The translations under genes and the position numbers were made by a program. This document shows, piece by piece, positions 3,616 to 41,013 of a stretch of 41,013 bases of DNA. The stretch lies in the UHGV virus genome UHGV-1836508, one strand, 5' to 3'. The notes beneath the pieces were generated by a model. That model saw only the letters and a program-made list of their open reading frames with translations. It ran no database searches and was not told where the DNA came from. Position 1 is the stretch's first letter, and each line of letters begins with the position of its first letter. Source of the stretch: a virus.

Positions 3616-3708
3616 TTATCCTTTGCTCCTAGATATGGTGGGCGTTCCATGCCCACCATTAAGTTAGTACCTACCTATTTTTACAGAAATGATTATTTTT
3701 TTCCACAA

Positions 3709-9265: not shown

Positions 9266-9956
9266 ATCGCGTAGCTCCAATAAACCCGCCAAAATGGATC
9301 ACTCCGTTGGCAAAATAATTCCGACGCGCATTACAGGCGTCATAACGTTTTGTGCAGTAATCAGCACCAGACATAGACGTCTGCTGGTTATTTTTGTCGA
9401 AATATGGACCGGTATAGCCGCATTCTGGCCCTCGGTATTTCCACGGGCAGGTGTTTTTAATGATCTGACGATACGGCAGTTGCACCCCCATCAAATCGAA
9501 CACACTGGACAATTCAAACTCGACAACCTGATGAGTTTCGAGAGTTTTCTGTTCGATAAACCACATTTCATCCGGGAAATGTTGGTTTGGATCTGCTGTT
9601 GGGTTGCCGTCTTTAAAATTAACGGCATCGAGGAAGCGAGCCAGCGTCATCTTGCGAATAATGCGGCAGCCAACAAGATCGTCGTTCGCCTGAACTTCCG
9701 CAGAGACGGTTCCGGCAAAGTTCGATACCTGAATTTTTGGACGTGGCAACGTTCCCTGGCCAGTTTTGTCAAAGCCTGATGCTTTGATTGGCCACGGCTC
9801 GTATGTCACTCCTTGCCAGACGACCGGTTGCATCAGTTCGTTTGTTCCGGCGTGGAAGAATAACTTCCCCCCTGAAGTTGTGTTCGACATATCCAGTACG
9901 AACAACTCAATGAGTGCAGAGGGAGATAAGCTCTGAATATCAGCTTTAATTCCCAT
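9258..9956 (-). CDS. minor tail protein (lambda gpL-like, Cys-rich C-terminus)
   Basis: Strong similarity to lambda L: VVWQGVTYEPWPIKASGFD…ARFLDAVNF…CPWKYRGPECGYTGP…C…C. ATG at 9956 has SD AAGGATG and gives 232 aa, the same length as lambda L. Confidence 0.9.
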   Translation of the reverse strand: MGIKADIQSLSPSALIELFVLDMSNTTSGGKLFFHAGTNELMQPVVWQGVTYEPWPIKASGFDKTGQGTLPRPKIQVSNFAGTVSAEVQANDDLVGCRIIRKMTLARFLDAVNFKDGNPTADPNQHFPDEMWFIEQKTLETHQVVEFELSSVFDLMGVQLPYRQIIKNTCPWKYRGPECGYTGPYFDKNNQQTSMSGADYCTKRYDACNARRNYFANGVIHFGGFIGATRYG

Positions 9957-10038
9957 TGTTTCATCCTTGAAATAAGTAGGCGCTAACATCCTGTCAGCGC
10001 CACAATGATAGTAAATTAGTACTTACTTATCCAGATAC

Positions 10039-10374
10039 TTAAGCCTCAAATACTTGTCTGAATGTAGCAGTTAAGACACAGTACCCCTGATATCGCTTGA
10101 CCGTATGACTGTCACATACAACTACAATCCGTTTTCCTCTTGGATTAACCCAATAGAACGACTCAACTCCTGCTCGCTCAGTCAGGAAGTCATCGATTGC
10201 ATTAATTTCGTTGTATGATCTGGTAAAGGTTAACGACCATTCTTCTTTAATACGATTAAGACCTTGAGCCTGTCGCTGCTCGTAGTCATCACCAAAATTA
10301 AGTACCGTTACATTCGGTTTTACGCTCTTTTCAGATTCGTAATCTGGATACCAATTAAACGTTTGTCTTTCCAT
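10039..10374 (-). CDS. minor tail protein (lambda gpM-like)
   Basis: 111 aa with FGDDYEQRQAQGLN, matching lambda M FGDGYSQRAPAGLN; SD AAGGA 7 nt upstream of the ATG. Confidence 0.85.
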   Translation of the reverse strand: MERQTFNWYPDYESEKSVKPNVTVLNFGDDYEQRQAQGLNRIKEEWSLTFTRSYNEINAIDDFLTERAGVESFYWVNPRGKRIVVVCDSHTVKRYQGYCVLTATFRQVFEA

Positions 10375-25424: not shown

Positions 25425-25443
25425 AGATCCCTCTAAAACACAC

Positions 25444-25463
25444 AGAGCGCGTCCATGCGCTCT
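25444..25463 (-). other. leader hairpin immediately upstream of the terminase small subunit RBS
   Basis: AGAGCGC-gtccat-GCGCTCT, 15-20 nt before the SD. Confidence 0.5.
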
Positions 25464-25507
25464 AAAACAACTTGTTTACTGCATCTGCTAACCAACTTGT
25501 TTTCTGG
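25464..25507 (-). promoter_or_regulatory. two copies of the shared palindromic leader element (AAACAAGTTGTTT type) upstream of the terminase genes
   Basis: Plus strand aaaacaacttgttta (25464-25478) and accaacttgttttctgg (25491-25507); same element as in the early-gene leaders. Confidence 0.5.
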
Positions 25508-25549
25508 GGTGTTTAATTAGGTCTGGCATGTCTTACGAAGCCTGCTTCC

Positions 25550-25586
25550 GTATATATTTAATAAGTTACTTATTATTTATATATAC
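25550..25586. promoter_or_regulatory. 37-bp AT-rich nested inverted repeat upstream of the terminase genes
   Basis: gtatatat-tt-aataag-tta-cttatt-att-atatatac; outer arms gtatatat/atatatac and inner arms aataag/cttatt. Confidence 0.5.
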
Positions 25587-25619
25587 AGATGCAGGTCTTT
25601 AAATAAGCTCCCAGACCGA

Positions 25620-25886
25620 TTACATCACCAGTAACTTCGCTTTGGCTCGACCTAAAGTGGTTAACCCAAGAGTCCGGCGGTGATAGCGATTGTCACTGCG
25701 TTGGCGCGTATGCCCTTTCTCCACCAGCCCCTTTTTTATCAGAGCGCGAATTGAGAACTGGATACTTTGCTTGGTTGTCTTGTACGGCAAAACTTCAAGC
25801 AATTCGTCCAGGTCAAGTAGATGACCTCGCTCATAACCGAGATTGAGCGTTTTGATGATGTCCTTTTGTTTATCGGTTAACGTCAT
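25620..25886 (-). CDS. small winged-helix-like DNA-binding protein (putative regulator)
   Basis: 88 aa, basic C-terminus, helix-turn-wing pattern (…QSIQFSIRALIKKGLVEKGHTRQRSDNRYHRRTLGLT…); SD AAGGA 7 nt before the ATG; last gene of the ParB operon. Confidence 0.45.
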   Translation of the reverse strand: MTLTDKQKDIIKTLNLGYERGHLLDLDELLEVLPYKTTKQSIQFSIRALIKKGLVEKGHTRQRSDNRYHRRTLGLTTLGRAKAKLLVM

Positions 25887-25895
25887 GGCAAATCC

Positions 25896-26786
25896 TTATG
25901 CCGGTAAAGCAATTTCTAACGGTTTATCCAAAGGTTGTTTGTCGAATGCCAGCAGTGGCAGCGTGTCAGGCAGTCGACGGCCAAAGTCAGGGTTTCGGTA
26001 CACACCATACAACGGAGACGTAAAGCTCAGGTTGTGAATGTCCTTGAGCAGCTTCACAATGCTGGCCTCGTCCACCAGACTGTCGGCAATGTCCTGAATC
26101 GTCGTGCCACGATTCCGCCCAGCTTTTGCCAGGGAACTGTTCTTATGGTAGTCCGCCACCAAATCGCGCAGCGCACGGCGACGACGAGACTCGCTCATAG
26201 CGAACAACTCTTTGACGATCGCCTCGTTATCACCCGGGTCGGAGCGGAAATGGCGCTGGAACACACGCAGTGCACTTTCATAGCTCTTCGGTCGCTCAGG
26301 GCGGATGAACTTAAACCCTGCTTTCATGGCGAAGGGATTGTATTTGCTCATCGAGGACTGGATCTCAATGATTGGCCGGTCATGCATCCTGCTAACCAGG
26401 TTAATCATTCTATAAGAGACGCCTACGCCACGATACTGAGTATCCACAACTGAGCGACTGATCACCGCAAAGTTGTTATTCACGTACCGACCCCAGTACT
26501 GGTTAGCCACGGTGGTATTAGTGGTTGGTTTCAACTTAGGAAACATGCGGTGGCGAGGTGCCAACAGTAGTTTCGGGTAAGCCATAACCACGACGCCCAC
26601 CAGACGGTCATCAAGTTCGCAGCGATAGTAAGTTGGCGCGAAAGGTTTGCCGTCTGTTTTGTAGTGAAGCGACTTAAGAGCGTGCCAGTCCTCTACAGTT
26701 CCCTTTGTAACAGTCATTCGCTCCAGAAAGTCCAGATGACGCGGAAACTCTTCAGGGCGGTAGCGTTTAATGATGATGTCCGTCAT
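25896..26786 (-). CDS. GNAT-like acyltransferase-fold protein with C-terminal extension
   Basis: GNAT motif A-like QYRGVGVSYRMI preceded by hydrophobic strands, and motif B-like YNPFAMKAGFKFI; about 130 extra C-terminal residues. ATG overlaps the ATPase stop (ATGA). Confidence 0.5.
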   Translation of the reverse strand: MTDIIIKRYRPEEFPRHLDFLERMTVTKGTVEDWHALKSLHYKTDGKPFAPTYYRCELDDRLVGVVVMAYPKLLLAPRHRMFPKLKPTTNTTVANQYWGRYVNNNFAVISRSVVDTQYRGVGVSYRMINLVSRMHDRPIIEIQSSMSKYNPFAMKAGFKFIRPERPKSYESALRVFQRHFRSDPGDNEAIVKELFAMSESRRRRALRDLVADYHKNSSLAKAGRNRGTTIQDIADSLVDEASIVKLLKDIHNLSFTSPLYGVYRNPDFGRRLPDTLPLLAFDKQPLDKPLEIALPA

Positions 26787-27448
26787 GAATGGACCTCATC
26801 ATGACTACCATTGTGATATTCCACCTTCACGCGTTCTTTGTAGTGCTTGGTGATCTGCATATCAGGGCGCAGCGCGTTCTTCAGGTCTTCGTGAGTCGTC
26901 GCCACCATTACCGTCGCACCAACCTTTCGAGCGGCACGCTGGAGGTTAGACGCCACAACCTGAGCGGTTACACGGTCGAGAACAGCGCCGAACTCGTCAG
27001 CAGCCCATACTTTAGCGCCTGACTCAATCAGTTTGGCAATCTTGAGACGATATTTCTGGCCGTCTGACATTTCAGAAGGCTTGCGAACAAACAGATATGC
27101 ATCGTTCAGACCAGCCATAGATAACAACCCAAGCGCATCACTGGTCGTTTTGCCCAACTGATCGATGACGTTAACCTCATTATCGAAGGTAAAATCATCG
27201 ATGGAGGCTACAGACAGCCCTTCATCCTTCATCTGTCGTTGCAACTCGCGCAGCACAACGGATTTGCCGGAACCGGATTGGCCGGTGATGTACACCACAT
27301 CGCCCTGCTTCACTTCCAGCTCCAGATTGTCGTAAAGCGTCCACTCTTTTTCGTCCAGGCCAAGCCCGAACGACTCAGCGATTTCCAACGTGCGCGTGGT
27401 TTTATTTACGCGTGTCTGAAACGATACGTTGATGATGTATTTGCTCAT
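26783..27448 (-). CDS. stand-alone ABC-type ATPase (nucleotide-binding domain only)
   Basis: Walker A GQSGSGKS, ABC signature MSDGQ, Walker B VWAADEF, H-loop TTHED; no transmembrane segment; ATGA overlaps on both sides. Confidence 0.75.
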   Translation of the reverse strand: MSKYIINVSFQTRVNKTTRTLEIAESFGLGLDEKEWTLYDNLELEVKQGDVVYITGQSGSGKSVVLRELQRQMKDEGLSVASIDDFTFDNEVNVIDQLGKTTSDALGLLSMAGLNDAYLFVRKPSEMSDGQKYRLKIAKLIESGAKVWAADEFGAVLDRVTAQVVASNLQRAARKVGATVMVATTHEDLKNALRPDMQITKHYKERVKVEYHNGSHDEVHS

Positions 27449-28113
27449 GCAGCCATCTCCCCGGAAGAGATCTTCTCCGCATATGCCACAAATGCGTCTA
27501 CCCCGCTTTCTCCCGTCATTTCTTCCATATGGGCAAGCAAATCACCAACAACAATGGCAGAGCCAGCAGGGAGCGTTTTAAAGCCCAATACGTCGACAAC
27601 ACGTACTTCTTCCGCTGCAACTTCACGACTGATCTCGGTGTGTTCATCCTTCTGTCGTTTAGTTTCTTCGCCAAGATCGATAACTAGCGAGTCGGTGTCC
27701 ATTTCTTCTGTCATACTGCCAACGAGAACATTCAACTCACGCTCTTCAAAGCCGAAAACCTCAATATCGTCCAGAACAAGCGACTCAAGCTCTTTCTGTA
27801 GCTTAATTGCATCGTAATCAATGCTGGCAAGTCGGTTATCTTCAAGGCGCTTCGCACGAACCTCGTCATCACTCAGATCATCACGAACAATAACCGGTAC
27901 GCGCTCAAGTCCAGCAAAAATTGCAGCCTCACGGCGGCCGTGGCCAGTAATAATTACGTCGTTCTTATCGACCGTAATTGGCTGGTCAAATCCGCGCTTT
28001 TTAATGGCTGCGGCCAAATCTCTGATCTGCTGTTCATCATGCTTTTTGGCATTCATCTCATAGGGAATAAGATCTGCCGGGTCGCGATATACGATTTCAA
28101 ACTTTTTGGTCAT
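27445..28113 (-). CDS. ParB/Srx-fold (ParB N-terminal domain) protein, paralogue 2
   Basis: …VIITGHGRREAAIFAGLERVPVIV… matches the ParB arginine-rich motif; ATG at 28113 overlaps the upstream stop (ATGA). Confidence 0.75.
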   Translation of the reverse strand: MTKKFEIVYRDPADLIPYEMNAKKHDEQQIRDLAAAIKKRGFDQPITVDKNDVIITGHGRREAAIFAGLERVPVIVRDDLSDDEVRAKRLEDNRLASIDYDAIKLQKELESLVLDDIEVFGFEERELNVLVGSMTEEMDTDSLVIDLGEETKRQKDEHTEISREVAAEEVRVVDVLGFKTLPAGSAIVVGDLLAHMEEMTGESGVDAFVAYAEKISSGEMAA

Positions 28114-28811
28114 TACATACGCTCCTTGTAGTAGTCGACCAGCCACACCAGAGCCTCACCAGCGTTCTCCATTTCATTACCGGTGTTAATAGCCTGCTCT
28201 TTGATGATGTTTTTTATGGTTTCTGCAACACGATCTGACGCATCGAAAGTTACTTTGAAGCGCATGGTCTGATGTTCCGCACCCACACGTTCGGTTTTCT
28301 CTCGTTTGTCGGTATCGACAGGCTCATCACTACCACGAGACAACGCCTCCAGTGCTTCAAGGTCGATTGCCGCCTCTTTTGCTAAAACCATCGAGATTTC
28401 GTCGTCATACGGGGCGATTTCAGACAGTTGATAGTCAAGTTCTGACTGAATTTCTTCAATGAAGCGTTGCAATGCGATTTGGTCGTCTTCACCGTATCGC
28501 TCGTTGTCCACCAGTGACATCTGTTTAGCTACGACATCGCTAATTTTGCCCACAGAAAGCACCGGAACCGTTGAAATTCCTTGCTCAATAGCAGCACGCC
28601 AGCGATGTTCACCGCCGAGGATTTCAAAAAATCCATCTTCAAGTTCACGAGCCAAAATTGGCTTAAAAAAGCCCAATTTTTCGATAGAACCTTTCAGTTT
28701 TTCAAAATTCTGCGCACCAACCGAATTGGTGTTCCAGGTATTCGGGCGAAGGTTGGCAACATCAACCTGCAAAATCGTGATTTTTACATCCATTTTATTG
28801 CTACAATCCAC
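28113..28811 (-). CDS. ParB/Srx-fold (ParB N-terminal domain) protein, paralogue 1
   Basis: …EILGGEHRWRAAIEQGISTVPVL… is close to the canonical ParB GERRxRAA box. Start uncertain (GTG 28811 or ATG 28793), both with weak SD. Confidence 0.7.
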   Translation of the reverse strand: MDCSNKMDVKITILQVDVANLRPNTWNTNSVGAQNFEKLKGSIEKLGFFKPILARELEDGFFEILGGEHRWRAAIEQGISTVPVLSVGKISDVVAKQMSLVDNERYGEDDQIALQRFIEEIQSELDYQLSEIAPYDDEISMVLAKEAAIDLEALEALSRGSDEPVDTDKREKTERVGAEHQTMRFKVTFDASDRVAETIKNIIKEQAINTGNEMENAGEALVWLVDYYKERM

Positions 28812-31732: not shown

Positions 31733-32533
31733 TTATTCTTCTGGTGGCACGACAAAATCATCGAGCTTATTCTTTTCGTCTCGAAGCAACTTGATTTCTT
31801 CTTCTGTTATACATTTGTCATAATCTGTTTGTTCAGAATGGCACAGTGTAACCGCGAATGGATAGCCGGTATAGGACAGTCCCCTAACAGGTTCTAGTTC
31901 ACCGTTGTCTTTTTTCCTAAATTTGTAAAAGTCAGGAGTGTCATAATTGGTGACGCTAACAAGAGCATATTTATCATTTTCTCTTGCATACACTTCACTA
32001 ACACCTCTCGATTCGCCCAACTCTCTACTCACATATGTCGAATCACTTGCTGCATCAAACACAGCCTGACCTAATGGAGTTTTTTTTAAATCATCTATTT
32101 TCTCTTTTTCCTTCCTGATTTTAGATTCGTTTTCCAGATAAAGTTTCACACCGTTTTCTTTACATGCTAGATTTTGGCGTTCAAAACGTAATCGTTCTCT
32201 TGCCGAGTTGGCACTTTTATCCATTGTAACGAATACAATCGGGTTACGTTCACGAACATCAAAGATGTGCGCATTGAATGCGGTCGCACCTGTATAGGCG
32301 TTCAAGACGTTTTTGCCATTCACCTCTCCACATACCATATATGAATAGCTATTTTCACCTAACTGAATAGCTCGCATATTCGTGAACCGACCAGCATCAG
32401 GATCTAGCAGTGTAGAGCGAATATCCTTTTCAACTAGATCTATGGCTCGCTCTTCATCAGAATCACAACCTGTTAATAGTAAAGCCGCTATTAACAATGC
32501 TAATGAGTATTTTTTATTCACCCCATTCTTCAT
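31733..32533 (-). CDS. lipoprotein (signal peptide with lipobox LTGC), stand-alone accessory gene
   Basis: N-terminus MKNGVNKKYSLALLIAALLLTGCDSD; own divergent promoter region and downstream hairpin; AT-rich. Confidence 0.7.
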   Translation of the reverse strand: MKNGVNKKYSLALLIAALLLTGCDSDEERAIDLVEKDIRSTLLDPDAGRFTNMRAIQLGENSYSYMVCGEVNGKNVLNAYTGATAFNAHIFDVRERNPIVFVTMDKSANSARERLRFERQNLACKENGVKLYLENESKIRKEKEKIDDLKKTPLGQAVFDAASDSTYVSRELGESRGVSEVYARENDKYALVSVTNYDTPDFYKFRKKDNGELEPVRGLSYTGYPFAVTLCHSEQTDYDKCITEEEIKLLRDEKNKLDDFVVPPEE

Positions 32534-32635
32534 GAAACTTATTCCATAATCAATTTTTGGTGGAATGTACGGTTAGTCTGTCTACGCATCATAGAGATGT
32601 ATATAATGACCAAAAAAGACTTAAAAAGGTAGACT

Positions 32636-33157
32636 ATGGTTAAAGACATCACCTACGGCATACCGGCTGAAGTCTGGCCGCGAGACTACGAACATGCTGA
32701 AAACATACTTATGTTCTGGCGGAAGAACAACATTCCTGTAAGAGTCACGCTTGAAGACGGTCAGGTGTTTTGCATGTACGTTCAGGGGACAATGCCTTCC
32801 CGCAATAAGCTAGATTTATGCCCGCTTCCATATGATAAAGAAAATCGTATAAGACTCCCACTTGAGCGCATTAGCACAATTGAATCAGGTGTAATCGATG
32901 GCATTGCTCGCGAGTTCAAAGGTAGGCTAACAATACATCCAGACTATGTTGACAATCAGCCATCACGCCGTGACTTTTTTGCGATATGTCGCAAGGCTTA
33001 TCAAAACGACCAATCTATAAGGGTCTACATGACAGACGGTCGTGAAATAGAAGGGGTGTCAAGAGGCGTTGATGCTTGCCAGGTCACTCTTAAATTAGAA
33101 GACGGCAGAAAAATACTTGTTTTCTTCGATTGGGTTGAACGAATCCTTCCATTTTAA
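32636..33157 (+). CDS. hypothetical protein with two tandem Rof/YaeO-like repeats (possible Rho modulator)
   Basis: Internal duplication …VRVTLEDGQVFCMYVQG…RIRLPLERISTIE / …QVTLKLEDGRKILVFFDWVERI resembling the LTLELKDGE…RLDKITSF pattern of Rof; TATAAT at 32602-32607 upstream. Confidence 0.35.
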   Translation: MVKDITYGIPAEVWPRDYEHAENILMFWRKNNIPVRVTLEDGQVFCMYVQGTMPSRNKLDLCPLPYDKENRIRLPLERISTIESGVIDGIAREFKGRLTIHPDYVDNQPSRRDFFAICRKAYQNDQSIRVYMTDGREIEGVSRGVDACQVTLKLEDGRKILVFFDWVERILPF

Positions 33158-33168
33158 ATCTATAAGGG

Positions 33169-33198
33169 TAATAACCGGCTAAGCCCGGTTATTATTTT
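33169..33198 (+). terminator. intrinsic terminator
   Basis: TAATAACCGG-ctaagc-CCGGTTATTA followed by TTTT. Confidence 0.7.
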
Positions 33199-33339
33199 AC
33201 ATGCCATTCATTTAAAACTCTTTCAATGTCACTCTGTATAAATATATAAGGTTAAAAGCCCGAATTGATTATTTATTTAGGGAACACCTTCGACGATCTC
33301 GCTTTTATTTCTAGGACTTTCATCCCTGCAGAAAATTTA

Positions 33340-33367
33340 AAAAAAATACTTGCAATCTTTTTTCACG
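33340..33367 (+). promoter_or_regulatory. sigma70-type promoter (TTGCAA - 16 bp - GATAAT) with upstream A-tract
   Basis: -35 at 33340-33345, -10 at 33362-33367, A-rich block 33321-33338; flanked by inverted repeat ttcgacgatctcgctttt / ctcgtcgaaagcgag. Confidence 0.55.
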
Positions 33368-33452
33368 TATCGATAATTGAACTCGTCGAAAGCGAGCTAG
33401 CTAACGACAGTAAAAAATAAATTCATTTTAATTTTTCGTAAGGATGTCCATC

Positions 33453-34103
33453 ATGACTAACATTATCATTTCTAAAAAGTCCATCATTGAAGCTGCTGCC
33501 ATTGTATCCGACGAGCTGCGCGAAAAAGCAGATCTGGCAACTCAAACATATAACGAACATTATAAAAATGGTACGCACACAAAAGCAGACAAAGCAAATA
33601 TGCAAGCTGCGACCACCAAACTTGCTTACTTCATCAACAACGTCGTAAACGCAGTAGAAGACGAAAAATTGTGCTCTGTTTTCTACTATGCGATCAAAGC
33701 AAGCAAACAAGCGCCAGAAGTATTTTTCCGTGATGCAATGACTAATAGTTATTCTCTGGAAAAACTGGTTTATCTGGTTAAATCCATTAAAGCTGGAAAG
33801 TGTGTTTATTCCGTCGCTGATATGTCCGGATCTCGTGTATTCGCATTAATCGATATGATTAACGACGAGATCGAGACGTTCACAAATGGCGCTGTTTTCG
33901 ATTTAATGAATGAAGCGAAAAAAGCCAACGAAATAAAATTAGACGCAGGATACACTCAAGCCAACCAGCTTATCAATCTTTGCGAACGTCTTGGACTTGT
34001 TGAGAAAGTCAAAGGAATGGGAAGCGCAAAAGCTGGTACGCAGCAATATCGCTTTATTAAAAATGATTTCTATAACTATCTGGCTGATGCTTTCAAAGCG
34101 TAA
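33453..34103 (+). CDS. hypothetical 216-aa protein
   Basis: SD AAGGA before the ATG at 33453; own promoter and terminator; no motif recognised. Confidence 0.55.
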   Translation: MTNIIISKKSIIEAAAIVSDELREKADLATQTYNEHYKNGTHTKADKANMQAATTKLAYFINNVVNAVEDEKLCSVFYYAIKASKQAPEVFFRDAMTNSYSLEKLVYLVKSIKAGKCVYSVADMSGSRVFALIDMINDEIETFTNGAVFDLMNEAKKANEIKLDAGYTQANQLINLCERLGLVEKVKGMGSAKAGTQQYRFIKNDFYNYLADAFKA

Positions 34104-34116
34104 TTAATGGAATCTG

Positions 34117-34137
34117 GCGCCCACTATGGGCGCTTTT
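34117..34137 (+). terminator. hairpin terminator (partial, read-through to next gene likely)
   Basis: GCGCCCA-cta-TGGGCGC followed by TTTT, then SD AAGGAG of the next gene. Confidence 0.6.
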
Positions 34138-34150
34138 AAGGAGCTTAATC

Positions 34151-34381
34151 ATGTTTATTCTTATCGCTGGCGTTAACGTGCGCAATGAATATTTTGTTAA
34201 TCGCATCGCTGGGATCGCTGGTTACGCTGGGCGCTCAGTCGAGTTTATCGATGAAACAACGCGTAAAATTGATTTATTGAGCGACCAGGAGCGAAAAAAA
34301 GCAGACGTGAACGACGCTGATATATTTTTAATGTTAAAAGCGTTTGTAGAAATGGGATTTAAAATCAGTTTACACAAATAA
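34151..34381 (+). CDS. hypothetical 76-aa protein
   Basis: SD AAGGAG 7 nt upstream; followed by a strong terminator. Confidence 0.5.
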   Translation: MFILIAGVNVRNEYFVNRIAGIAGYAGRSVEFIDETTRKIDLLSDQERKKADVNDADIFLMLKAFVEMGFKISLHK

Positions 34382-34387
34382 AATCGA

Positions 34388-34410
34388 GCGCCCATAGTGG
34401 GCGCTTTTTT
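34388..34410 (+). terminator. intrinsic terminator
   Basis: GCGCCCA-tag-TGGGCGC then TTTTTT; exact reverse complement of the hairpin at 34117-34133. Confidence 0.8.
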
Positions 34411-34434
34411 CGTTTCCAATACTCCCACCATAAC

Positions 34435-34456
34435 GCGCCAATGATGGCGCTTTTTT
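34435..34456 (+). terminator. second tandem intrinsic terminator
   Basis: GCGCCA-atga-TGGCGC then TTTTTT; further weaker GC hairpins follow to about 34580. Confidence 0.65.
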
Positions 34457-34758
34457 ATTGTCTTTGACTCACTCCAACAACATAAAAATAAGCGCCAAAA
34501 TAACGCCATAGACGCGCTTTTATATCCTTACCAGTACATACCCATTACTTAGCGCATTAACGCGCTTAAATCGCGTTATATTGCGTTATGGTGTATGGTT
34601 AATCATTGGCTTTTATTCTTGCTATGTGATCCGCGTTTATTTGTCGGCGCAGATCGGCATTTTGTGTTGTTCTGTGTCCGCTCGCATATGATTGCCACGT
34701 TGGGCAACGTGTACGCGCTTACAGTGATTTACCCACGGATTCACATAATCACATAGCG

Positions 34759-34995
34759 AAAGCTATCTGGATGGCCCAGGGGCTGAAACCCCCACCAGCG
34801 ATACCCCAGCGCCGCTACGCAATTTCTGGCGCGATTCCGGGTTTCTCCCGCTCAGTTTTCTACATAAAGGCGACCCCCGCCGTTTCCCGAAAAAATCCTG
34901 GCCGTTTCCCGTCGGCTCATGAATACGTTCCTCGCCGTTTCTGAAAATTTCCCTGCGGCAGCTGGTGGCTATAGAGAAAGGGCCGTTTCTGGCCC
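34759..34995. repeat. iteron array 1: about 6-8 direct repeats of (G)CCGTTTCC(C)-type units
   Basis: gccgtttcccgaaaaaa (34878), gccgtttcccgtcgg (34901), cgccgtttctgaaaat (34933), tttccctgcgg (34950), gccgtttctggccc (34982) plus degenerate copies; non-coding. Confidence 0.75.
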
Positions 34996-35004
34996 TCTTC
35001 TCAG

Positions 35005-35487
35005 TTACACGCCATCAAGGATGTGGATGCGGTTGCTTGCGTATACATTCAGCATAAAGTTAGCGCAAAACAGTTTCCATGTATCAACGCCAGCGGTATA
35101 CGTAATGTTTTTGCATTTAATCGCATTGTTGGCGATCCGCATCCCCTGCGATACTGCTTCATCGTCGGAAAATTTGAACGACGATTGAGTTTTAATCCAG
35201 ACAGAAATCTGCGTAGCGAACTCAATCAGCTTGGACTGGCAGAATCGCCCGGAGCGCACCGGAAAGACGAACGTTCCGAATCCAGAATTTACCACATACG
35301 CTTTCTCAAATACCCGCGAGTAACGACGATTGCCAATGATGTCGCGTGCAATAATGCATTTTTCTTGTGCTGACAGTTCTACCGTCTCATTGTCGCGCCA
35401 TGCACCAAGTACTCGTTTTTCAATGTCAGAGAACGTTACAGCGATATTGCCATGTGCGGGTGCGTTTACAGTAGCGATAAAATTCAT
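35005..35487 (-). CDS. hypothetical 160-aa early-cassette protein A
   Basis: ATG with SD AAGGAAA; own promoter and shared leader element. Confidence 0.6.
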   Translation of the reverse strand: MNFIATVNAPAHGNIAVTFSDIEKRVLGAWRDNETVELSAQEKCIIARDIIGNRRYSRVFEKAYVVNSGFGTFVFPVRSGRFCQSKLIEFATQISVWIKTQSSFKFSDDEAVSQGMRIANNAIKCKNITYTAGVDTWKLFCANFMLNVYASNRIHILDGV

Positions 35488-35508
35488 GATTATTTCCTTA
35501 TCGTAAAT

Positions 35509-35562
35509 AACAAATTGTTTTCTTGTTGGTGTTAATTATCGTTGTACGAATAAGGCGTCAAA
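35509..35562 (-). promoter_or_regulatory. promoter (TTGACG - 15 bp - GATAAT) plus conserved leader element for gene A
   Basis: Minus strand reads TTGACGccttattcgtacaacGATAATtaACACCAACAAGAAAACAATTTGTT, then SD and ATG. Confidence 0.55.
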
Positions 35563-35662
35563 GTGGAAAGTTGCGGTAGCCGGACGAGAACAGGTGGGTT
35601 TGTCGGTTGCCTGGAGGTAAGAGGTTGGTGTTTTTAGCCTGCGGGAAACAGGATGGTCATTT

Positions 35663-35686
35663 AAGGCCACCAGCATTGGTGGCCTT
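35663..35686 (-). terminator. hairpin (terminator or processing site) after gene B; contains a Chi octamer
   Basis: AAGGCCACCA-gcat-TGGTGGCCTT; near-identical copy at 36134-36157. Confidence 0.45.
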
Positions 35687-35691
35687 AGTCT

Positions 35692-35973
35692 TTAGTGGAG
35701 CAGACCGATGTCGATGGTATCCCCTGAATCATCCACACGGATCATCAGCATGGCGAAGGCGTTTAGTGGATAGCTTGCGTGCCATTCAGGGAAGCGGTCA
35801 TCTCGCATGAAGTCGGCAATGTCGTAAACGCATCCCTCAAAGTGGAAGAATCGCGTGCTTACCTGCTCGTCATAATCCACATGATCCATTTCTTGCTGTT
35901 CTGTTTCCGGCAAGTCCAGCCATGATTCAAGGAATACATTTTGTGCTTTAGGGGTAATGGTGAAATCAGTCAT
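35692..35973 (-). CDS. small strongly acidic early-cassette protein B (93 aa; DNA-mimic-like composition)
   Basis: ATG at 35973 with SD GAGGA (the longer track ORF has no SD). About 22 Asp/Glu against about 5 Lys/Arg. Shares a D(I/A)ADFM(R/D) segment with gene F. Confidence 0.55.
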   Translation of the reverse strand: MTDFTITPKAQNVFLESWLDLPETEQQEMDHVDYDEQVSTRFFHFEGCVYDIADFMRDDRFPEWHASYPLNAFAMLMIRVDDSGDTIDIGLLH

Positions 35974-35992
35974 GAGCATATCCTCACTGCGT

Positions 35993-36024
35993 AAACATGT
36001 TGTTTTCTTGTTGGTGTAATTATC
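35993..36024 (-). promoter_or_regulatory. -10 GATAAT plus conserved leader element for gene B
   Basis: Minus strand GCGATAATtACACCAACAAGAAAACAACATGTTTAC. Confidence 0.5.
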
Positions 36025-36133
36025 GCAGTGTAGATAAGGCATAAAAGAAGTTAATACAGGCTGAATACACAAGAAAGGTTCTGGAAGTTGATAGCCAGGT
36101 TTCAAACTAACCTTCGGTTATTAAAAGTCATTT

Positions 36134-36157
36134 AAGACCACCAATGCTGGTGGCCTT
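36134..36157 (-). terminator. hairpin (terminator or processing site), inverted copy of the 35663 element; contains a Chi octamer
   Basis: AAGACCACCA-atgc-TGGTGGCCTT, followed on the minus strand by a U-rich tract. Confidence 0.45.
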
Positions 36158-36308
36158 AATAATTATCGCCCGATTACGCTAAGGATCTTTTCCTCAACTG
36201 ATTTGTTGTTGCGACTAAACTGCCTTGCGTATCTGATGACAGAAGAGGCGTTTTGCTTTCTGACCATCTCGGCTCTTTCCTTCAGGCGTTTCTTGAAATC
36301 GCCCATAT

Positions 36309-36683
36309 TTACCACCAGGCGCAGAAGGTCAGTCTGTTATTGTGAAAGTCGTGGTTCTTAATCAGATCTTCCACAAGCTCTTTCAACTCCCCCACATCAT
36401 GCCAGTAACCTTCATCGTACTCCTGACTGCCGAAGAAAAAACCTTCCCGGGTAGGCAAGTACTCTTCGCAATTACTTTCGTTTATGTGCATCAAATGAGC
36501 CTTCAGAAAACAAATGTCATTCATCGTTAATTCTAAAAGCTCACAATTTTCGACTTCACCTACGTTGCGCTCCATCCACCCAACGAGCGCATTGAACTTA
36601 CGGAAGTAAGCAACCCGCTTTCTGGATGCCTCGTTATTCAGATCGTTTTTAGGCTGTGTCTCGATATAGATATCAAGTCCCAT
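36309..36683 (-). CDS. hypothetical acidic early-cassette protein C (124 aa)
   Basis: ATG at 36683 with SD AAGGAA; track start 36725 is GTG without SD. Confidence 0.55.
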   Translation of the reverse strand: MGLDIYIETQPKNDLNNEASRKRVAYFRKFNALVGWMERNVGEVENCELLELTMNDICFLKAHLMHINESNCEEYLPTREGFFFGSQEYDEGYWHDVGELKELVEDLIKNHDFHNNRLTFCAWW

Positions 36684-36737
36684 GATGGTTTCCTTATTAA
36701 GTTGCTTCAGTGAAATCATTTTCACAAATCAGATAAG

Positions 36738-36760
36738 GCAGAAAACAAATTGTTATCGGG
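36738..36760 (-). promoter_or_regulatory. conserved leader/operator element upstream of gene C, in inverted orientation
   Basis: Plus strand gcagaaaacaaattgttatcggg. Confidence 0.4.
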
Positions 36761-36768
36761 CTTAATAA

Positions 36769-36791
36769 AATGGCGCGGTTTACGCGCCATT
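36769..36791 (-). terminator. intrinsic terminator after gene D
   Basis: AATGGCGCG-gttta-CGCGCCATT then TTATT on the minus strand. Confidence 0.65.
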
Positions 36792-36800
36792 TAAAGAGGA

Positions 36801-37196
36801 TTAAGCGAATACGCTTTCAGGGATTAAGGTGTCGGCAGGAATGCCAGAGGTAATGCGCAGGCCGTACTGACCAATCCAGGTAGTGTTGGTATTCAGGTTG
36901 GAGGCGAATACGGTGTTAACCATATTCATCATGGTTTCAAACACCTCTTCATCAACCTGGCGGAAGTAGTTCTCGATTTTCAGCAGCAGCGGGTCAGTTG
37001 CATCGAGAATGGACTGGTATTGAGTCGCGTACTCGCCGTCGGAGGCATCACCTTTACGCACGATCGTACTGGCCTGGACTTCGGCACCAGTTTCGGTGTT
37101 GTACGTAACAACGGTGATTTTTGCCACATTCTTACCTTCGGCGGTTTCAGAGGCATAGTAAACATCAACTGTCAGTTTTTCGCGTTTAACGGTCAT
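36801..37196 (-). CDS. hypothetical 131-aa early-cassette protein D
   Basis: ATG at 37196 with SD GGAGAG; own sigma70-like promoter. Confidence 0.55.
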   Translation of the reverse strand: MTVKREKLTVDVYYASETAEGKNVAKITVVTYNTETGAEVQASTIVRKGDASDGEYATQYQSILDATDPLLLKIENYFRQVDEEVFETMMNMVNTVFASNLNTNTTWIGQYGLRITSGIPADTLIPESVFA

Positions 37197-37228
37197 TTCA
37201 CTCTCCGTAGTGTTTTGGTTATTTTTAT

Positions 37229-37257
37229 ATTCTATGATCGTAGGTATGTACTTACAA
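37229..37257 (-). promoter_or_regulatory. sigma70-type promoter for gene D (TTGTAA - 17 bp - TAGAAT)
   Basis: Hexamers read on minus strand; -35 lies within a GTAAGTAC motif. Confidence 0.5.
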
Positions 37258-37266
37258 TACAAAAAA

Positions 37267-37289
37267 AGCCCCGTAAGGATGGCGGGGCT
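37267..37289 (-). terminator. intrinsic terminator after gene E
   Basis: Minus strand AGCCCCGCC-atccttac-GGGGCT followed by TTTTTTT. Confidence 0.8.
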
Positions 37290-37323
37290 GTCGTACTGTC
37301 GACTAATTACCACTTGCACATTA

Positions 37324-37635
37324 TCAGGCTATTGCCATCACTGATGCTCTCTGAATTTCTTGCTGGGCCACGCGGTTAACTTCCATCAAAGCCAGTTCGA
37401 GCTGATGTTCCGGCCACATTCTTTGAAATGCCATCCAGCCTTTTCCACGCTGGCGACGAACATTCATTACATAACGAGTAAAGGTGTTTTTATCGAAAGA
37501 CACCGCTGTTTCACGGAACAGACGAATAGAGGTTCCATTGGCAACGATGTCCAGCAAAGTTAATTGAGCAACCAGCGCAGGCTTCTCTTTTCTCTTCTGG
37601 TCTTTGTCCAGACCAAGAACCAATGATTTTTTCAT
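37324..37635 (-). CDS. small basic early-cassette protein E (103 aa; possible nucleic-acid-binding regulator)
   Basis: ATG at 37635 with SD GGAG; Lys/Arg-rich. Confidence 0.5.
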   Translation of the reverse strand: MKKSLVLGLDKDQKRKEKPALVAQLTLLDIVANGTSIRLFRETAVSFDKNTFTRYVMNVRRQRGKGWMAFQRMWPEHQLELALMEVNRVAQQEIQRASVMAIA

Positions 37636-37646
37636 CACAACTCCGT

Positions 37647-37681
37647 AAACAACTTGTTTTCTCAATGGCGTAAATAATACC
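37647..37681 (-). promoter_or_regulatory. -10-like TATTAT plus conserved leader element for gene E
   Basis: Minus strand GGTATTATttacgccattGAGAAAACAAGTTGTTTAC. Confidence 0.45.
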
Positions 37682-37789
37682 AGTAAGAAAACGGCTACAA
37701 AGCATATTGATCAGGCGCATGAGCGATATGCAGGTTCTTCCCTGCGGCTACAGATTAAGTTAAGCCAGCATTGCTGGCTTTGGTTGGGA

Positions 37790-38119
37790 TTACGCGATTA
37801 CCTCAAGAAACTCCTGAACGTCCCAATGCTGGACGAGGTGAAGATAGACCTTAGAAATCACGTCATTTTCGCTATCGCATGTGAAGTAGTACTTCTGGCT
37901 GCGGTTGTATGTGTCCACACAAAATTCGCTCATATCCATAAAGTCAGCATCTTCACCCATGTCGCAAATCATCAAAGCAGGTGCGTCATCACGAGTCATC
38001 AGCTCAAGCACCCACCGCGAATTGATCAGAGTGGAAGACCAACCTTCTAACTCATAAAACTGATCAAACTCTTTTTGAGTTAATTTCTTGATTTGGTTGA
38101 TGTCGATATTTGCAAACAT
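37790..38119 (-). CDS. small strongly acidic early-cassette protein F (109 aa; paralogue-like to B)
   Basis: ATG at 38119 with SD AAGGA; net charge about -15; EDADFMDMSEF segment resembles gene B. Confidence 0.55.
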   Translation of the reverse strand: MFANIDINQIKKLTQKEFDQFYELEGWSSTLINSRWVLELMTRDDAPALMICDMGEDADFMDMSEFCVDTYNRSQKYYFTCDSENDVISKVYLHLVQHWDVQEFLEVIA

Positions 38120-38132
38120 AAAGCAATCCTTA

Positions 38133-38165
38133 AACAACATGTTTTCTTGATGGTGTTATTATCGC
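38133..38165 (-). promoter_or_regulatory. -10 GATAAT plus conserved leader element for gene F
   Basis: Minus strand GCGATAATAACACCATCAAGAAAACATGTTGTTTAAGG. Confidence 0.5.
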
Positions 38166-38479
38166 AATAACGCACAAGCGAAAAAGGATTTTATTCCGGT
38201 GAATGTGGTTTTGGCAGTGAGTTTTCAGGTTCAGTACCGAGAACACTTTTTACATTATTCTGATTTAGTGGCCGAAGGTGGCTGGTGGGCAGAATAATCC
38301 TCTCCCCGAAAACCTACTGAAATCGATTGTGACCCGTTGGCTGTCTGGCACAATTACGCTGTAGCTGGGCATTCAGAGGGAATCCAGCGGTAAGTAAGTT
38401 CGCCTGCACGTGAGCGTCTCTCTTCTTCCCGCACATTACAGGTGGGTAGCCGCAACTCTCCCTCTCGCTATACCGGTAC

Positions 38480-38662
38480 GCCGCCGTTCCTGAACCGGCA
38501 TCGAGCCTTTTCCCGAAATCCACACAGGCAACTCGACCGTTTCCCTGAAAATCCCCAGCCGTTCCCCGAAGGCAATCCAGCCGTTTCTGTAGCGGGATGC
38601 AGCCTTTTCCCTGCGGCGACGCTCCCGTTCCTGAAAATGGACATAGCCTTTTCCCTGGATGG
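38480..38662. repeat. iteron array 2: eight direct repeats of (A)GCCGTTTCCCTGAAAA-type units at 20-23 bp spacing
   Basis: Copies start at about 38484, 38504, 38537, 38557, 38578, 38601, 38624 and 38645; the region has only low-complexity ORFs. Confidence 0.8.
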
Positions 38663-38699
38663 CCCGAAGGCTGACCGAAGGGGTGGAAATAGGCGTTAC

Positions 38700-39690
38700 G
38701 GGGGACGAAAATTATGGCTTGAATTTATACGAAGAAAGTAGCGATACCCCTCCTTCCCTTCCCACTTATACCTCCCACGAATTTTCTCTCTTATGTGGGC
38801 ATAAACCTTCCCTCTGATAACGCTCTATACGGCGAGTATTCCTTTGGGTGAAATGGGTGGTTTGTTCTTTCTACCGGCATATGTGGTTTCGTTCTTCTTG
38901 AGGTGGTTCTTCTCTGTGTTTTCGTCTGGGTTGTTCTCGTCGTTTTGGTGACTGTTCTTCTCCGTGTATGGAGTAATGGCAGGTGGGCGATTGCTTTCGT
39001 TATTGTGTTTGAGTTGTTTGTCTGGAGTGCGTGAAGGGCTTTTGTAGTTATTCGTGTATTGGGTAATGGCGTTTCCCGTGATTGTTATGTTTCGTGTCTT
39101 TTGGGATTGAGAGAAACCTTGCGGTTACAGGCTTCGTTGGGGTTTCAGTGATTCTGGTGTTTCTTCGCTGTTTGGGTAATGGCGTGTCGTGGGTATCGCG
39201 CGTATGGAAGTTTCGAATTGCCTGTGAAAGTTAGGTTGGTTGTCCGGTAGCCTGGGAAGAAGAGGTGGGTCTTTTCGGTAGCCTGCCATAAAGAGGTTGG
39301 TTGTTTTTGGTAATGGCATATGTGTTATTTAGTTGTTTTGTTATACCTGAAAATAAGTTGTTTATATGGTTGTGTAACGCAACGGGAGCGATTTTGAGCG
39401 TGTGTTTTTGTTGGTAGTGTGTTGAGTCGTCTGTGGTGAAATTTGGACGCTGTGGCGCTATCTGCTGCGTGGGATTACGGGTATAAGAAGTGATGTGTGA
39501 AAACGTCAATTTTTTAGACCAAATCGGGTGAAAGCGTTGACATTTCGTTGATCTGTTGTTCAGTTGTTTTCTTATTGGTATAAACAACTATAACCTATTG
39601 ATATTTAAGGATGTGATTGCAGGTATAGAATGGGGGTAGTGGCGATCAACGGATTCTTATAGAAAAGAATCAAATTGTGACCGCCATTAT
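38700..39690. other. ~1-kb GT-rich (plus strand) non-coding tract with dispersed GGTAATGGC repeats
   Basis: No plus-strand ORF of 60 aa or more; minus-strand ORFs are low-complexity with TTG start; GGTAATGGC-like motif at about 38965, 39063, 39175 and 39309. Confidence 0.6.
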
Positions 39691-39697
39691 CAATGTT

Positions 39698-40432
39698 TTA
39701 CTTAGTTTTGTTTAGCAGAGAGAGAATTTCATCACTAATTTCACTCGCCTGTTTGATAGCCAATGCAGTTACCTCTTCTATGGTTGGTGACTGTTGATGC
39801 TCATGTTTGGTTTCAGTTATGACAATGTGTTCTTCACCTGAATTTGCGCATAGTGCCGCATTGACTATAAGGTTTGAGTAAGAATTTAGCAGAGCACTGT
39901 TGATAAACGCTTTCACGGTATTACTGTCTGCACCAAATACATCTTTTCTGACCGCTTCAGCCTCACAGCGAACCCCTGCAGCAACATCGTGAAGAACATG
40001 TATGGCCTTGGGGCTTGTTTGTTCACAGTACTCAATCATTATTGTCGAATTGTTCTGTTCAACAAATGATCTGATGCCTGACGATTCACCCATAGCATCG
40101 AAGGCAGCGTGACCCGCACTAGTAGAGATATCTTCATAGAGTTCTTCATCGCTATCTTTTTCTTCAGGTGTCGAGGTGTCTTCATCGTCGTAATAGATAT
40201 TGCCTTTAATCAGTGTTTTGGACACTTGATATAAACAATAAGAGACAAGATTTAAGCATTGGATTTTAGCTGTATTGTCCTTTGTCGCCTCGCTCTTCAG
40301 TTCTTTCGCTTCTTCAGTAAGGCTGTTGATAAGACTTTGTATTTTTTCCAACGCGTTAGGTGCACACTCAGCGTTGTCCATAAAGAATTTATAACCAGTC
40401 CCAGGGATTTCTAAACTTTTCAACTTTTTCAT
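39698..40432 (-). CDS. hypothetical 244-aa protein
   Basis: ATG start with SD-like AGGAT upstream; acidic central region; no motif recognised. Confidence 0.55.
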   Translation of the reverse strand: MKKLKSLEIPGTGYKFFMDNAECAPNALEKIQSLINSLTEEAKELKSEATKDNTAKIQCLNLVSYCLYQVSKTLIKGNIYYDDEDTSTPEEKDSDEELYEDISTSAGHAAFDAMGESSGIRSFVEQNNSTIMIEYCEQTSPKAIHVLHDVAAGVRCEAEAVRKDVFGADSNTVKAFINSALLNSYSNLIVNAALCANSGEEHIVITETKHEHQQSPTIEEVTALAIKQASEISDEILSLLNKTK

Positions 40433-40477
40433 TTCTTTGATAATCCTAAAAACAAACTACCAATGCTTTAATATCTG

Positions 40478-40777
40478 TTACCAGTTCCAGCACTCAAGCC
40501 CTTCAACAACCGGTGCGCCACAATCAAAATGTACAGAGTCAAAGCCTACATCAAGTACCTTCTGAATGTTCGAAATCGCGCCCTCGGATATACCATATCG
40601 ACGCAAGTTATCTTTCCAGTCATCGTCCTGTAACCCGGCGTGAACTATGCAACCGTACTCAATTTGTGAAACCCAATCCAGCTCATTGCTTGCGATCATG
40701 AATCGGCGAGCATCTTCCTCTGATGTATGAGATGAACTGATCAATGCCACCTGGTAGGATTGAGTAATATTTAACAT
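40478..40777 (-). CDS. hypothetical 99-aa acidic protein
   Basis: ORF overlapping the upstream gene stop; no motif recognised. Confidence 0.5.
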   Translation of the reverse strand: MLNITQSYQVALISSSHTSEEDARRFMIASNELDWVSQIEYGCIVHAGLQDDDWKDNLRRYGISEGAISNIQKVLDVGFDSVHFDCGAPVVEGLECWNW

Positions 40778-41013
40778 CCCCTCTCCCCGTTTGGAAACAA
40801 CTCATTCGCCGTAGTGGATATAACCTCCCAATTAACGCCGACATCAGCGTTATGGCATTGTCTGATTTTTTGCATCACCTGTACGCATTGTTCATCAGTG
40901 AGATCTGTCCTTACTTCAGCAATATCTTCTTTGTGCCACATAACCATGAGTAAGGGTTCGTCTTCTGGATAGTTTTTCAGTTTCTCGATGATTTCTTTTG
41001 CTGTTCCAAACAT
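40771..41013 (-). CDS. hypothetical 80-aa acidic protein (start at or beyond window end)
   Basis: ATG exactly at the window edge; the upstream region is not visible, so the N-terminus may be longer. Confidence 0.45.
   Translation of the reverse strand: MFGTAKEIIEKLKNYPEDEPLLMVMWHKEDIAEVRTDLTDEQCVQVMQKIRQCHNADVGVNWEVISTTANELFPNGERGC

Follow-up and report, generated by a model that had tools for sequence, protein, structure and literature searches.

Two clusters of one short iteron family, lying kilobases apart on a phage-plasmid-like element, are found in phage P4, whose ori and crr carry the type I iterons of the alpha protein; the winged-helix domain binds both clusters, and both are needed in cis. 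In the replicons of P1 (oriR/incA), F (incB/incC) and RepFIB, two phased direct-repeat arrays with a spacing of about 20 bp bracket the gene of the initiator; these replicons also have DnaA boxes and an AT-rich region, and their iterons change along with the Rep protein. Phased direct repeats in two clusters are also a feature of the iteron centromeres (R1 parC, pB171 parC1/parC2, tubC bound by TubR and the dispersed sopC sites of N15), and four to eight phased sites are found in origins of the lambda type. The window analysed here (the whole 41,013-nucleotide stretch of the virus genome UHGV-1836508) contains two arrays of one repeat family which resemble all these systems in part and are identical to none of them. 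The arrays are non-coding, deeply conserved, helically phased and independent of the plasmid replication protein RepA, and they most likely mark a control site of the phage lytic programme, possibly an unmapped lytic origin.

The segment at 34.4-39.3 kb of the window, in which both arrays lie, shares 97.9% identity with Escherichia phage Cyrano (the phage-plasmid pLF82 of E. coli LF82, with a genome of about 108 kb) and about 80% identity, over the alignable parts, with Salmonella phage SSU5, and the Cyrano/SSU5 structural genes occupy the first 25 kb of the window. The same segment is matched by 728 plasmid records from Klebsiella, Escherichia, Enterobacter, Yersinia, Salmonella and others, nearly all of them non-mobilizable. 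Judging by these matches, the window is part of an SSU5-type phage-plasmid. About 800 plasmid records were found for this group, which includes pHCM2 of S. Typhi, pMT1 of Y. pestis, pLF82/Cyrano and the Klebsiella pKPHS1 group, and its members have been described in the literature as carrying resistance genes.

The motif CCKTTYCY occurs in the window 15 times on the plus strand and once on the minus strand and forms only two clusters, in which every unit is on the plus strand. The left array (34879-34962) consists of three canonical units starting at 34879, 34901 and 34934 (GCCGTTTCC/T) and one degenerate unit at about 34945 (AAATTTCCCTGCGGC), and the right array (38483-38667) of eight units starting at 38483, 38505, 38536, 38558, 38580, 38602, 38624 and 38646; the motif matches themselves are located at 34880, 34902, 34935 and 34983 on the left and, eight in number, at 38484-38647 on the right. 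Such clustering far exceeds chance: with at most one mismatch allowed, GCCGTTTCC was matched 24 times as opposed to 9.1 ± 2.8 times in shuffled sequences, none of the 100 shuffles reaching 24, and a simple Poisson estimate is about 0.006 for at least three same-strand matches in 64 bp anywhere in the window and below numerical precision for eight matches in 172 bp. A third cluster is absent from the whole Cyrano genome.

The spacing of the units is 22 and 33 bp in the left array (with 48 bp to a further copy at 34982, which is discussed below) and 22, 31, 22, 22, 22, 22 and 22 bp in the right one. In the right arrays of 25 distinct relatives 22-bp intervals account for 74 out of 92 and 31-bp intervals for 14. 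Given the spacing of 22, 31 or 33 bp, the units of an array share one face of the DNA helix. Helically phased tandem direct repeats, which are a generic feature of iteron origins, are present in the window and in the 25 relatives at 22, 31, 33 or 44 bp.

The left array had been described in a sequence-only reading as containing five units. Those assigned to 34878, 34901 and 34933 are indeed canonical, the one at about 34950 is only a partial unit (TTTCCCTGCGGC), which recurs inside the right array at 38607, and the one at 34982 turned out to form the loop of the hairpin GGGCC-GTTTCT-GGCCC, behind which the minus strand has a T-run. This iteron-like loop belongs to the intrinsic terminator (34970-34995, minus strand) of a gene coding for a 160-aa protein, and its stem covaries (GGGGC/GCCCC elsewhere). 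Degenerate copies proposed further to the left (34787-34878) are not retained in Cyrano or pNH25.3, and the putative inverted copy at about 35640 is a one-mismatch match within a separate family of 30-bp repeats (35574-35660 and again 39241-39300). The flanking box CTGGATGGCCC(A/G)..GGCTGA, on the other hand, proved to be real: it is found on the plus strand at 34767-34786 (CTGGATGGCCCAGGGGCTGA) and at 38655-38674 (CTGGATGGCCCGAAGGCTGA, overlapping the last iteron) with 17 of 20 positions identical, the left copy being absent or diverged in pNH25.3 and Cyrano. On the left the box precedes the array by about 90 bp, whereas on the right it is found at the downstream end of the array, and the two regions are therefore not collinear copies. 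A segmental duplication of the left and right regions is not apparent from their comparison either, as there is no collinear homology and the matches are limited to repeat families.

The left array, at which a Chi sequence is located (34961-34968), lies in a conserved non-coding region of about 620 bp between convergent genes (34382-35004; mean column identity of 79% over 8 lineages), which also holds AACGCG/GCGTTAT repeats, the left box and two plus-strand terminators at 34386-34406 and 34435-34450. Around the right array about 1.5 kb (38141-39697) are non-coding, with a degenerate iteron-like copy on the plus strand (TCTCCCCGAAAACC at 38300-38320, conserved as TCTTCCCGAAAACCTACTGAAA) between the array and the promoter of the genes enclosed by the arrays, hereafter the cassette.

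Both arrays are kept in elements from E. coli, Salmonella, Klebsiella, Enterobacter and Cronobacter. The left array and its flanks can be aligned over E. coli, SSU5, Y. pestis pMT1, two Klebsiella lineages, Enterobacter and Cronobacter, and the three canonical left units are nearly invariant in 8 lineages including pMT1. The right array is found in all those lineages except pMT1, which retains the left array only, with an insertion sequence element and a rearrangement coming after the second cassette gene. Wherever both arrays are present (26 distinct loci and several plasmid lineages) they belong to one repeat family, have one orientation and bracket the cassette, as the sequence-only reading had suggested; in the lineages other than pMT1 the repeats are conserved as two arrays, and a merged single array without the cassette was not seen. 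The distance between the arrays is 3.6 kb in the window and 1.5-4.3 kb in the relatives. The right array has from 3 to 8 copies in relatives, which differ by insertions or deletions (indels) of 22 or 44 bp, and the open reading frames (ORFs) annotated over it are therefore not coding.

The core CCGTT(T/C)CC is kept wherever synteny is kept, including the deep-branching Klebsiella plasmid OW968253. The 160-aa protein of this plasmid shows only about 31-33% identity (33.3% by tblastn, 31.5% by blastp), an FljA-like protein 36% and RepA 49%; the plasmid retains the full layout, consisting of left iterons (GCCGTTTCCCGAAA, CCCGTTTCCCTGCGG), the cassette, right iterons, a CTTGAAT..ACG box and an asymmetric tract described below. 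Due to the constancy of the motif while the plasmid replicon and neighbouring genes change, the arrays can serve as a stable marker of the family. No published description of them was found in the literature on SSU5 iterons, lytic origin or direct repeats or on the pHCM2 centromere, and, while iteron arrays as such are a known kind of element, this family differs in being bipartite, RepA-independent and constant across lineages with differing plasmid replicons. A pattern scan of IMG/VR gave, beyond SSU5-like contigs, mostly chance matches. One of its loci (L022) contains a lambdoid origin-like array inside a 364-aa ORF, which was considered unrelated, the common CCGTTTCC core being judged coincidental. 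In the lambda-type origin the iterons are inverted repeats inside the gene of the initiator (the winged-helix O protein) and beside an AT-rich region, whereas the repeats reported here are intergenic direct ones without such a region.

The layout of P1, F and RepFIB is seen in the RepA locus of the element itself. In Cyrano, where 34.9-39.6 kb of the window corresponds to 95-99 kb and the RepA locus to 61.7-62.4 kb, a distance of 33 kb separates repA from the arrays. The gene has iterons of its own, of the CTCTATAGTGGAT type, on both sides (L003, 1650-2133 and 3190-3760) in the classic oriR-repA-incA arrangement, and the RepA iterons of OW968253 are TATGCTGTCAGCGG (L131, 22700-22820 and 23940-24210). 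The iteron sequence differs completely between the two elements while their RepA proteins are 49% identical, and neither type resembles CCGTTTCC. The assumption that the arrays are RepA iterons of the IncFIB/P1 type was rejected, as their sequence is different, repA is far away in Cyrano and DnaA boxes are absent from the array region, the sole TTWTNCACA match in the window being at 3699. In contrast to P1, F and RepFIB, the arrays do not bracket a Rep gene. Since Rep iterons diverge along with Rep while the CCGTTTCC arrays stay constant, the latter are, judging by sequence comparison, served by a binder which is different from RepA and more conserved.

The cassette on the minus strand (35005-38119) consists of six small genes, in agreement with the sequence-only reading. 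Its core is formed by the genes of the 160-aa (35005-35487), 131-aa (36801-37196 of the ORF 36801-37319) and 103-aa (37324-37635) proteins, the rest being variable: in the 26 distinct loci the 160-aa and 103-aa genes are always there and the 131-aa gene is present in 24, and the remaining genes are gained and lost. Among ten neighbouring proteins searched against Pfam and PHROGs only the FljA-like regulator was recognisable, leaving the six cassette genes without an assigned function, and sequence and profile searches of the Protein Data Bank (PDB) with the 160-aa and 103-aa proteins, as well as with a 216-aa protein considered below, gave no match. Every cassette gene is preceded by a promoter of its own, behind which comes a palindromic operator-like leader (AAACAA-N-TTGTTT or AAGAAAACAA-N-TTGTTT). 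Five copies of this element are found, at 38133-38187 (minus strand), 35509-35563, 35993-36047, 37648-37702 and about 39560-39600. Two near-identical 27-nt terminator hairpins (35661-35687 and 36133-36159) contain Chi (GCTGGTGG or its complement), and three plus-strand copies of the 30-bp repeat CGGTAGCCTGG..GAGGTGGGT are located at 35574-35660, with 74% identity over 85 bp (E-value 2e-9) to the repeats of the same family at 39241-39300.

It had been proposed that the arrays flank a module inserted or exchanged as a unit. This would make them homology blocks for excision or swapping of the cassette, and they are indeed same-orientation direct repeats around a region of variable length, with a Chi site in or near each (34961 and 38281). 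In the alignment with relatives, however, there is not a single case of a merged array lacking the cassette, the smallest spacing still being about 1.5 kb, and the three core genes are always or almost always retained. All the mapped breakpoints of gene gain and loss (35686-35690, 36046, 36127, 36729-36732, 37703-37707 and 38140-38147) fall on internal promoter/operator repeats and Chi-bearing terminator hairpins, one relative (L036) having a clean hairpin-to-hairpin deletion, and homology between the arrays amounts to just 9-14 bp per unit and 64% over 99 bp. The cassette is thus plastic, but the iterons are not its recombination sites, and a role of the arrays as recombination boundaries is very improbable. 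The cassette, as distinct from the iterons, is reminiscent of the promoter-early stem-loop elements (PeSLs) of T4-type phages, in which a repeated early-type promoter and a near-identical hairpin frame small genes and breaks of gain and loss occur at these elements; the five promoter/operator copies, the two 27-nt hairpins and the breakpoints lying on them all correspond to this description. The differences are that T4 belongs to another phage lineage, that the hairpins here carry Chi and that the promoters here carry a palindromic operator.

The same promoter/operator element is also located at the parA promoter in Cyrano (L007, 14240-14275) and OW968253 (L132, about 7975-8030). By analogy with the scattered C1 operators of phage P1, AAACAA-N-TTGTTT looks like the target of a genome-wide repressor.

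The most likely binder of the arrays is a 216-aa protein (phrog_1513; CYRAN_113 in Cyrano) encoded on the plus strand at 33453-34103. Its gene, located on the left of the left array at a distance of about 780 bp, is syntenic with this array in all the lineages examined. In the AlphaFold model (pLDDT 88.7) N-terminal helical hairpins are followed by a winged-helix-like C-terminal domain with the order helix-strand-helix-helix-strand-strand, and the best Foldseek matches are winged-helix DNA binders, namely RTP, MukE, the winged helix of Orc1/Cdc6 and TubR, although individually these matches are weak (E-values of 0.05-0.3). In the putative recognition helix the TQ pair and the following glycine are invariant, and (Y/F)TQxNQ...ERLGL is mostly retained down to 22-30% overall identity. 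An exhaustive profile search of 1.84 billion proteins resulted in 23 clusters of the family without a link to any known one, and the one distant member whose context was examined (P0109, locus L133) is SSU5-like, so that the family appears, in the members examined, to be confined to SSU5-like elements. In this metagenomic relative with 30% identity, the gene is followed by repeats loosely resembling CGTTCCC/CGTTTTGAAA, which is suggestive only. As compared with P4, where the iteron is TGTTCACC and the binder is the C-terminus of a large primase-helicase, the candidate has no enzymatic domain, and a DnaB-like helicase and a primase are encoded by separate genes about 40 kb away. The assignment gives the phrog_1513 family a testable candidate role as array binder.

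The gene of the 216-aa protein ends an operon headed by the FljA-like gene (32636-33157, plus strand), whose product matches the FljA family (PF03614, repressor of phase-1 flagellin) over its full length with an E-value of 1e-80 and gives a weak sub-threshold match to Hfq/LSM-like proteins in its C-terminal part. FljA acts on mRNA, and the FljA-like protein may therefore act on the A-rich leaders nearby.

In the published RNA-seq data for the LF82 lysogen CYRAN_113 is at about 6, which is the floor level, as opposed to 133 for RepA, 50 for ParA and 96 for the repressor (PMC9928086). Being silent in the lysogen, the 216-aa gene places the system in the lytic programme. It is therefore suggested that the arrays are most likely cooperative same-face sites for a protein encoded by the conserved backbone, most likely the 216-aa one, acting during lytic development. 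They would be double-stranded DNA docking sites for a single sequence-specific protein other than RepA, which, with phasing at two or three helical turns, would be aligned on one face and could oligomerise. The 216-aa protein is predicted to combine a winged helix with a coiled-coil-like helical domain. Bridging of the two arrays over the distance of about 1.5-4.3 kb could then produce a loop.

The preferred, although tentative, interpretation is that the two arrays constitute a two-part lytic replication origin in the manner of ori and crr of P4 or of plasmid R6K. The core would be formed by the right array, which is the larger one, the left array would function as a distal enhancer or control site, and the helicase, primase, DNA polymerase III α subunit, single-stranded DNA-binding protein and UvsW/UvsY-type proteins of the phage would be recruited there. 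This interpretation is favoured because the element encodes a full replisome but no lytic origin is known for it: neither such an origin nor an initiator is annotated in the Cyrano record, and for the SSU5-type phage-plasmids, whose plasmid replicon is typed, neither a lytic origin nor early-gene control was found to be described in the literature. It is also favoured because phased iteron arrays are typical of replication origins, because the right array is surrounded by a large conserved region that is free of genes and has a promoter pointing inward and because the candidate binder is the product of a lytic-phase gene. A two-part origin was among the possibilities raised in the sequence-only reading; the two-part arrangement is ancestral, which makes a two-part cis-acting site a fair reading, yet several of the expected accompanying features are missing.

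A nearest-neighbour stability scan revealed no AT-rich unwinding element next to either array, the least stable 40-mers of the two regions (34321, 34451, 39326 and 39567) being 400-900 bp away, and the lack of DnaA boxes in the array region points in the same direction. No recognisable initiator family is encoded beside the arrays according to Pfam, PHROGs and PDB profiles, and for the 216-aa protein itself, with its predicted winged helix, the searches gave neither a Rep family (Pfam, PHROGs) nor a solved structure of similar sequence (PDB profiles). The position of the left array, where genes converge, is more typical of a terminus than of an origin, and the cumulative GC skew of the whole Cyrano genome bears no origin signature, although this curve is monotonic and dominated by gene orientation and hence uninformative about origins. 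Furthermore, in the half-size Cronobacter plasmid NZ_CP027108.1 (51.6 kb), which is defective and exists as a plasmid only, having lost most structural genes, both arrays and the cassette are retained together with ParA and its partner, the helicase, the FljA-like gene and the 216-aa gene, which fits a role in maintenance equally well. All these points weigh against an origin.

Maintenance of the plasmid would be the role of the arrays if they were dispersed centromere sites for the type Ib ParA of the element and its small ribbon-helix-helix-like partner (CYRAN_28/29), comparable to sopC of N15 or parC1/parC2 of pB171. The ParA (Pfam MipZ/CbiA) and the 119-aa partner, whose core is ribbon-helix-helix-like and whose tail is basic, are encoded without an obvious centromere nearby, as no repeat array was found beside the par operon in Cyrano or OW968253. 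The ParG-like partner was found in 797 plasmids, whose genera match those of the right array; in Yersinia both the partner and the right array are missing. The strand with which the partner would read DNA, KSRTMS(L/I)ED, is near-identical in the deep lineage (one L/I change), and the partner is expressed in the LF82 lysogen. The retention of the arrays in NZ_CP027108.1 can be counted here as well. On the other hand, the par operon lies about 40 kb from the arrays, the parA promoter of Cyrano and OW968253 has only the general operator and no CCGTTTCC-like autoregulatory site, and pMT1 retains the left array without this par system. A candidate DNA-binding gene right beside the arrays makes a more economical pairing than the par partner, and a partition centromere is on balance unlikely. 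CYRAN_99, annotated as MinD, was also examined as a partition protein and rejected, being an Mrp/NUBPL-type ATPase. Either way, a conserved RepA-independent cis site is a concrete target for mapping a lytic origin or a centromere and for explaining incompatibility or jumps in copy number.

Somewhat less doubtful than a centromere, but still less probable than an origin, is a purely transcriptional function, in which a phage regulator (the 216-aa protein or another one) bound to both arrays would repress, activate or insulate the cassette by looping or by a nucleoprotein filament without any role in replication. The transcription units are framed by the arrays, of which the right one precedes the first cassette promoter by about 300-470 bp and the left one comes just after the last terminator. 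The region is rich in other regulatory repeats, with an operator at each promoter and the 30-bp repeats upstream of the promoter of the 160-aa gene, and the partial expression of several cassette genes in the lysogen, where the candidate binder is not expressed, fits a switch. However, the arrays are distant from the core promoter elements, every cassette gene already has an operator-bearing promoter, eight phased sites with a copy number of 3-8 would be unusual for a simple operator, and neither the 1.5-kb non-coding region nor its asymmetric tract is explained in this way.

To the right of the right array there is a conserved block (38695-38775) consisting of GTTACGGGGGA, a short AT-rich stretch around CTTGAAT..TACG and a polypyrimidine run CCCCTCCTTCCCTTCCCACTT, which is still recognisable in OW968253. 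It is followed by the asymmetric non-coding tract of about 800 bp (38800-39600), with a G+T-rich plus strand, GC skew up to +0.56 and AT skew down to -0.63; its position and skew are conserved in every lineage examined. A unit of about 27 bp with GTAATGGC at its end recurs four times in the tract (38958, 39048, 39161 and near 39300), which also contains the two 30-bp repeats at 39241-39300. An invariant promoter-like element on the minus strand, TTGACG-N18-TATACC (39480-39509), identified from its sequence, points leftward into the tract and toward the right array. A leftward transcript of the tract would be about 76% A+C, and the tract may function as a leader for Rho loading, as a site of R-loop formation or, at the RNA level, in the binding of a protein. 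It contains no pseudogene of the 160-aa gene, and the 118-codon ORF annotated there has an implausible low-complexity translation and no match among PHROG families. Taking into account the 22/44-bp indels, a TTG start and an implausible translation, the Cyrano ORFs CYRAN_104 and CYRAN_103 annotated over the right array and the tract (38314-38523 and 39231-39587 of the window; 9907-10311 and 10801-11157 of the Cyrano locus L001) are probably not genes; CYRAN_103 is expressed at floor level.

A bolder version of the two-part origin, which we regard as somewhat less likely than either a centromere or transcriptional control, is that the arrays, the 216-aa protein and the 1.5-kb region represent an unrecognised type of phage lytic origin. 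It would combine a small new initiator family with two looped arrays, the transcription of an A+C-rich untranslated leader RNA, about 0.9 kb in length, would gate its firing, and it would be linked to the UvsW/UvsY-type recombination-replication proteins; the leader RNA could be Rho-sensitive or form an R-loop.

The arrays themselves might also function at the RNA level, either their C-rich, G-poor plus strand or their minus-strand GGGAAA repeats acting as a Rho-loading site or a CsrA-type sponge. The GC skew is -0.13 to -0.25 at both arrays, the minus-strand units CAGGGAAA/CAGGAA are reminiscent of the repeats of CsrB, and ahead of the right array there are the inward-pointing promoter and a long untranslated tract. 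In contrast, strict phasing at 22, 31 and 33 bp and the invariant 9-nt core point to recognition as double-stranded DNA, and the left array comes after a terminator. An Rfam scan over 32000-41013 at E-values up to 1 gave no match, and neither array strand folds better than shuffled sequences (z of +1.40 and +0.98 for the two strands of the right array), for which reason the idea of a CsrA sponge or riboregulator was dropped. Together with the 22/44-bp indels, these folding energies exclude a coding region or a structured RNA, and an RNA-level role is as improbable as that of recombination boundaries.

The sequence-only reading had also mentioned a packaging region, i.e. pac or cos sites for the small terminase subunit, and such sites are often arrays of direct repeats, as in lambda cosB and SPP1 pac. 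The terminase genes are located at about 23.5-25.4 kb, however, 9.5-13 kb from the arrays; with the most AT-rich spot of the window they occupy about 23.5-25.6 kb, at a distance of 9-13 kb. The intergenic region upstream of these genes (25425-25620) is the least stable DNA of the window, and it is here that the Cyrano and SSU5 records start. A packaging function is thereby the least credible of all those considered, and even taken together the RNA-level, recombination and packaging roles are improbable.

Several other features of the window were recorded. Chi occurs 13 times in its 41 kb (6722, 7131, 10895, 11143, 13986, 22854, 25721, 30202, 34792, 34961, 35667, 36146 and 38281) compared with about 1.3 expected for a random octamer, five of these sites being within 34.8-38.3 kb. 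Upstream of the region discussed there are genes for two adjacent ParB_N-domain proteins of about 232 aa each (27445-28811), followed by one for a small ABC-type ATPase (26783-27448), all on the minus strand and identified with Pfam; the cluster is kept across the family including pMT1, and the Pfam search of these genes revealed no connection to the arrays. The motif WTACTTAY, often as the palindrome TAAGTA..TACTTA, is found at 10023, 16530, 20105, 23528, 25566 and 28823. These sites fall within the least stable, AT-rich spots that separate structural-gene operons or precede the terminase genes, and the motif is probably a late-promoter or activator site.

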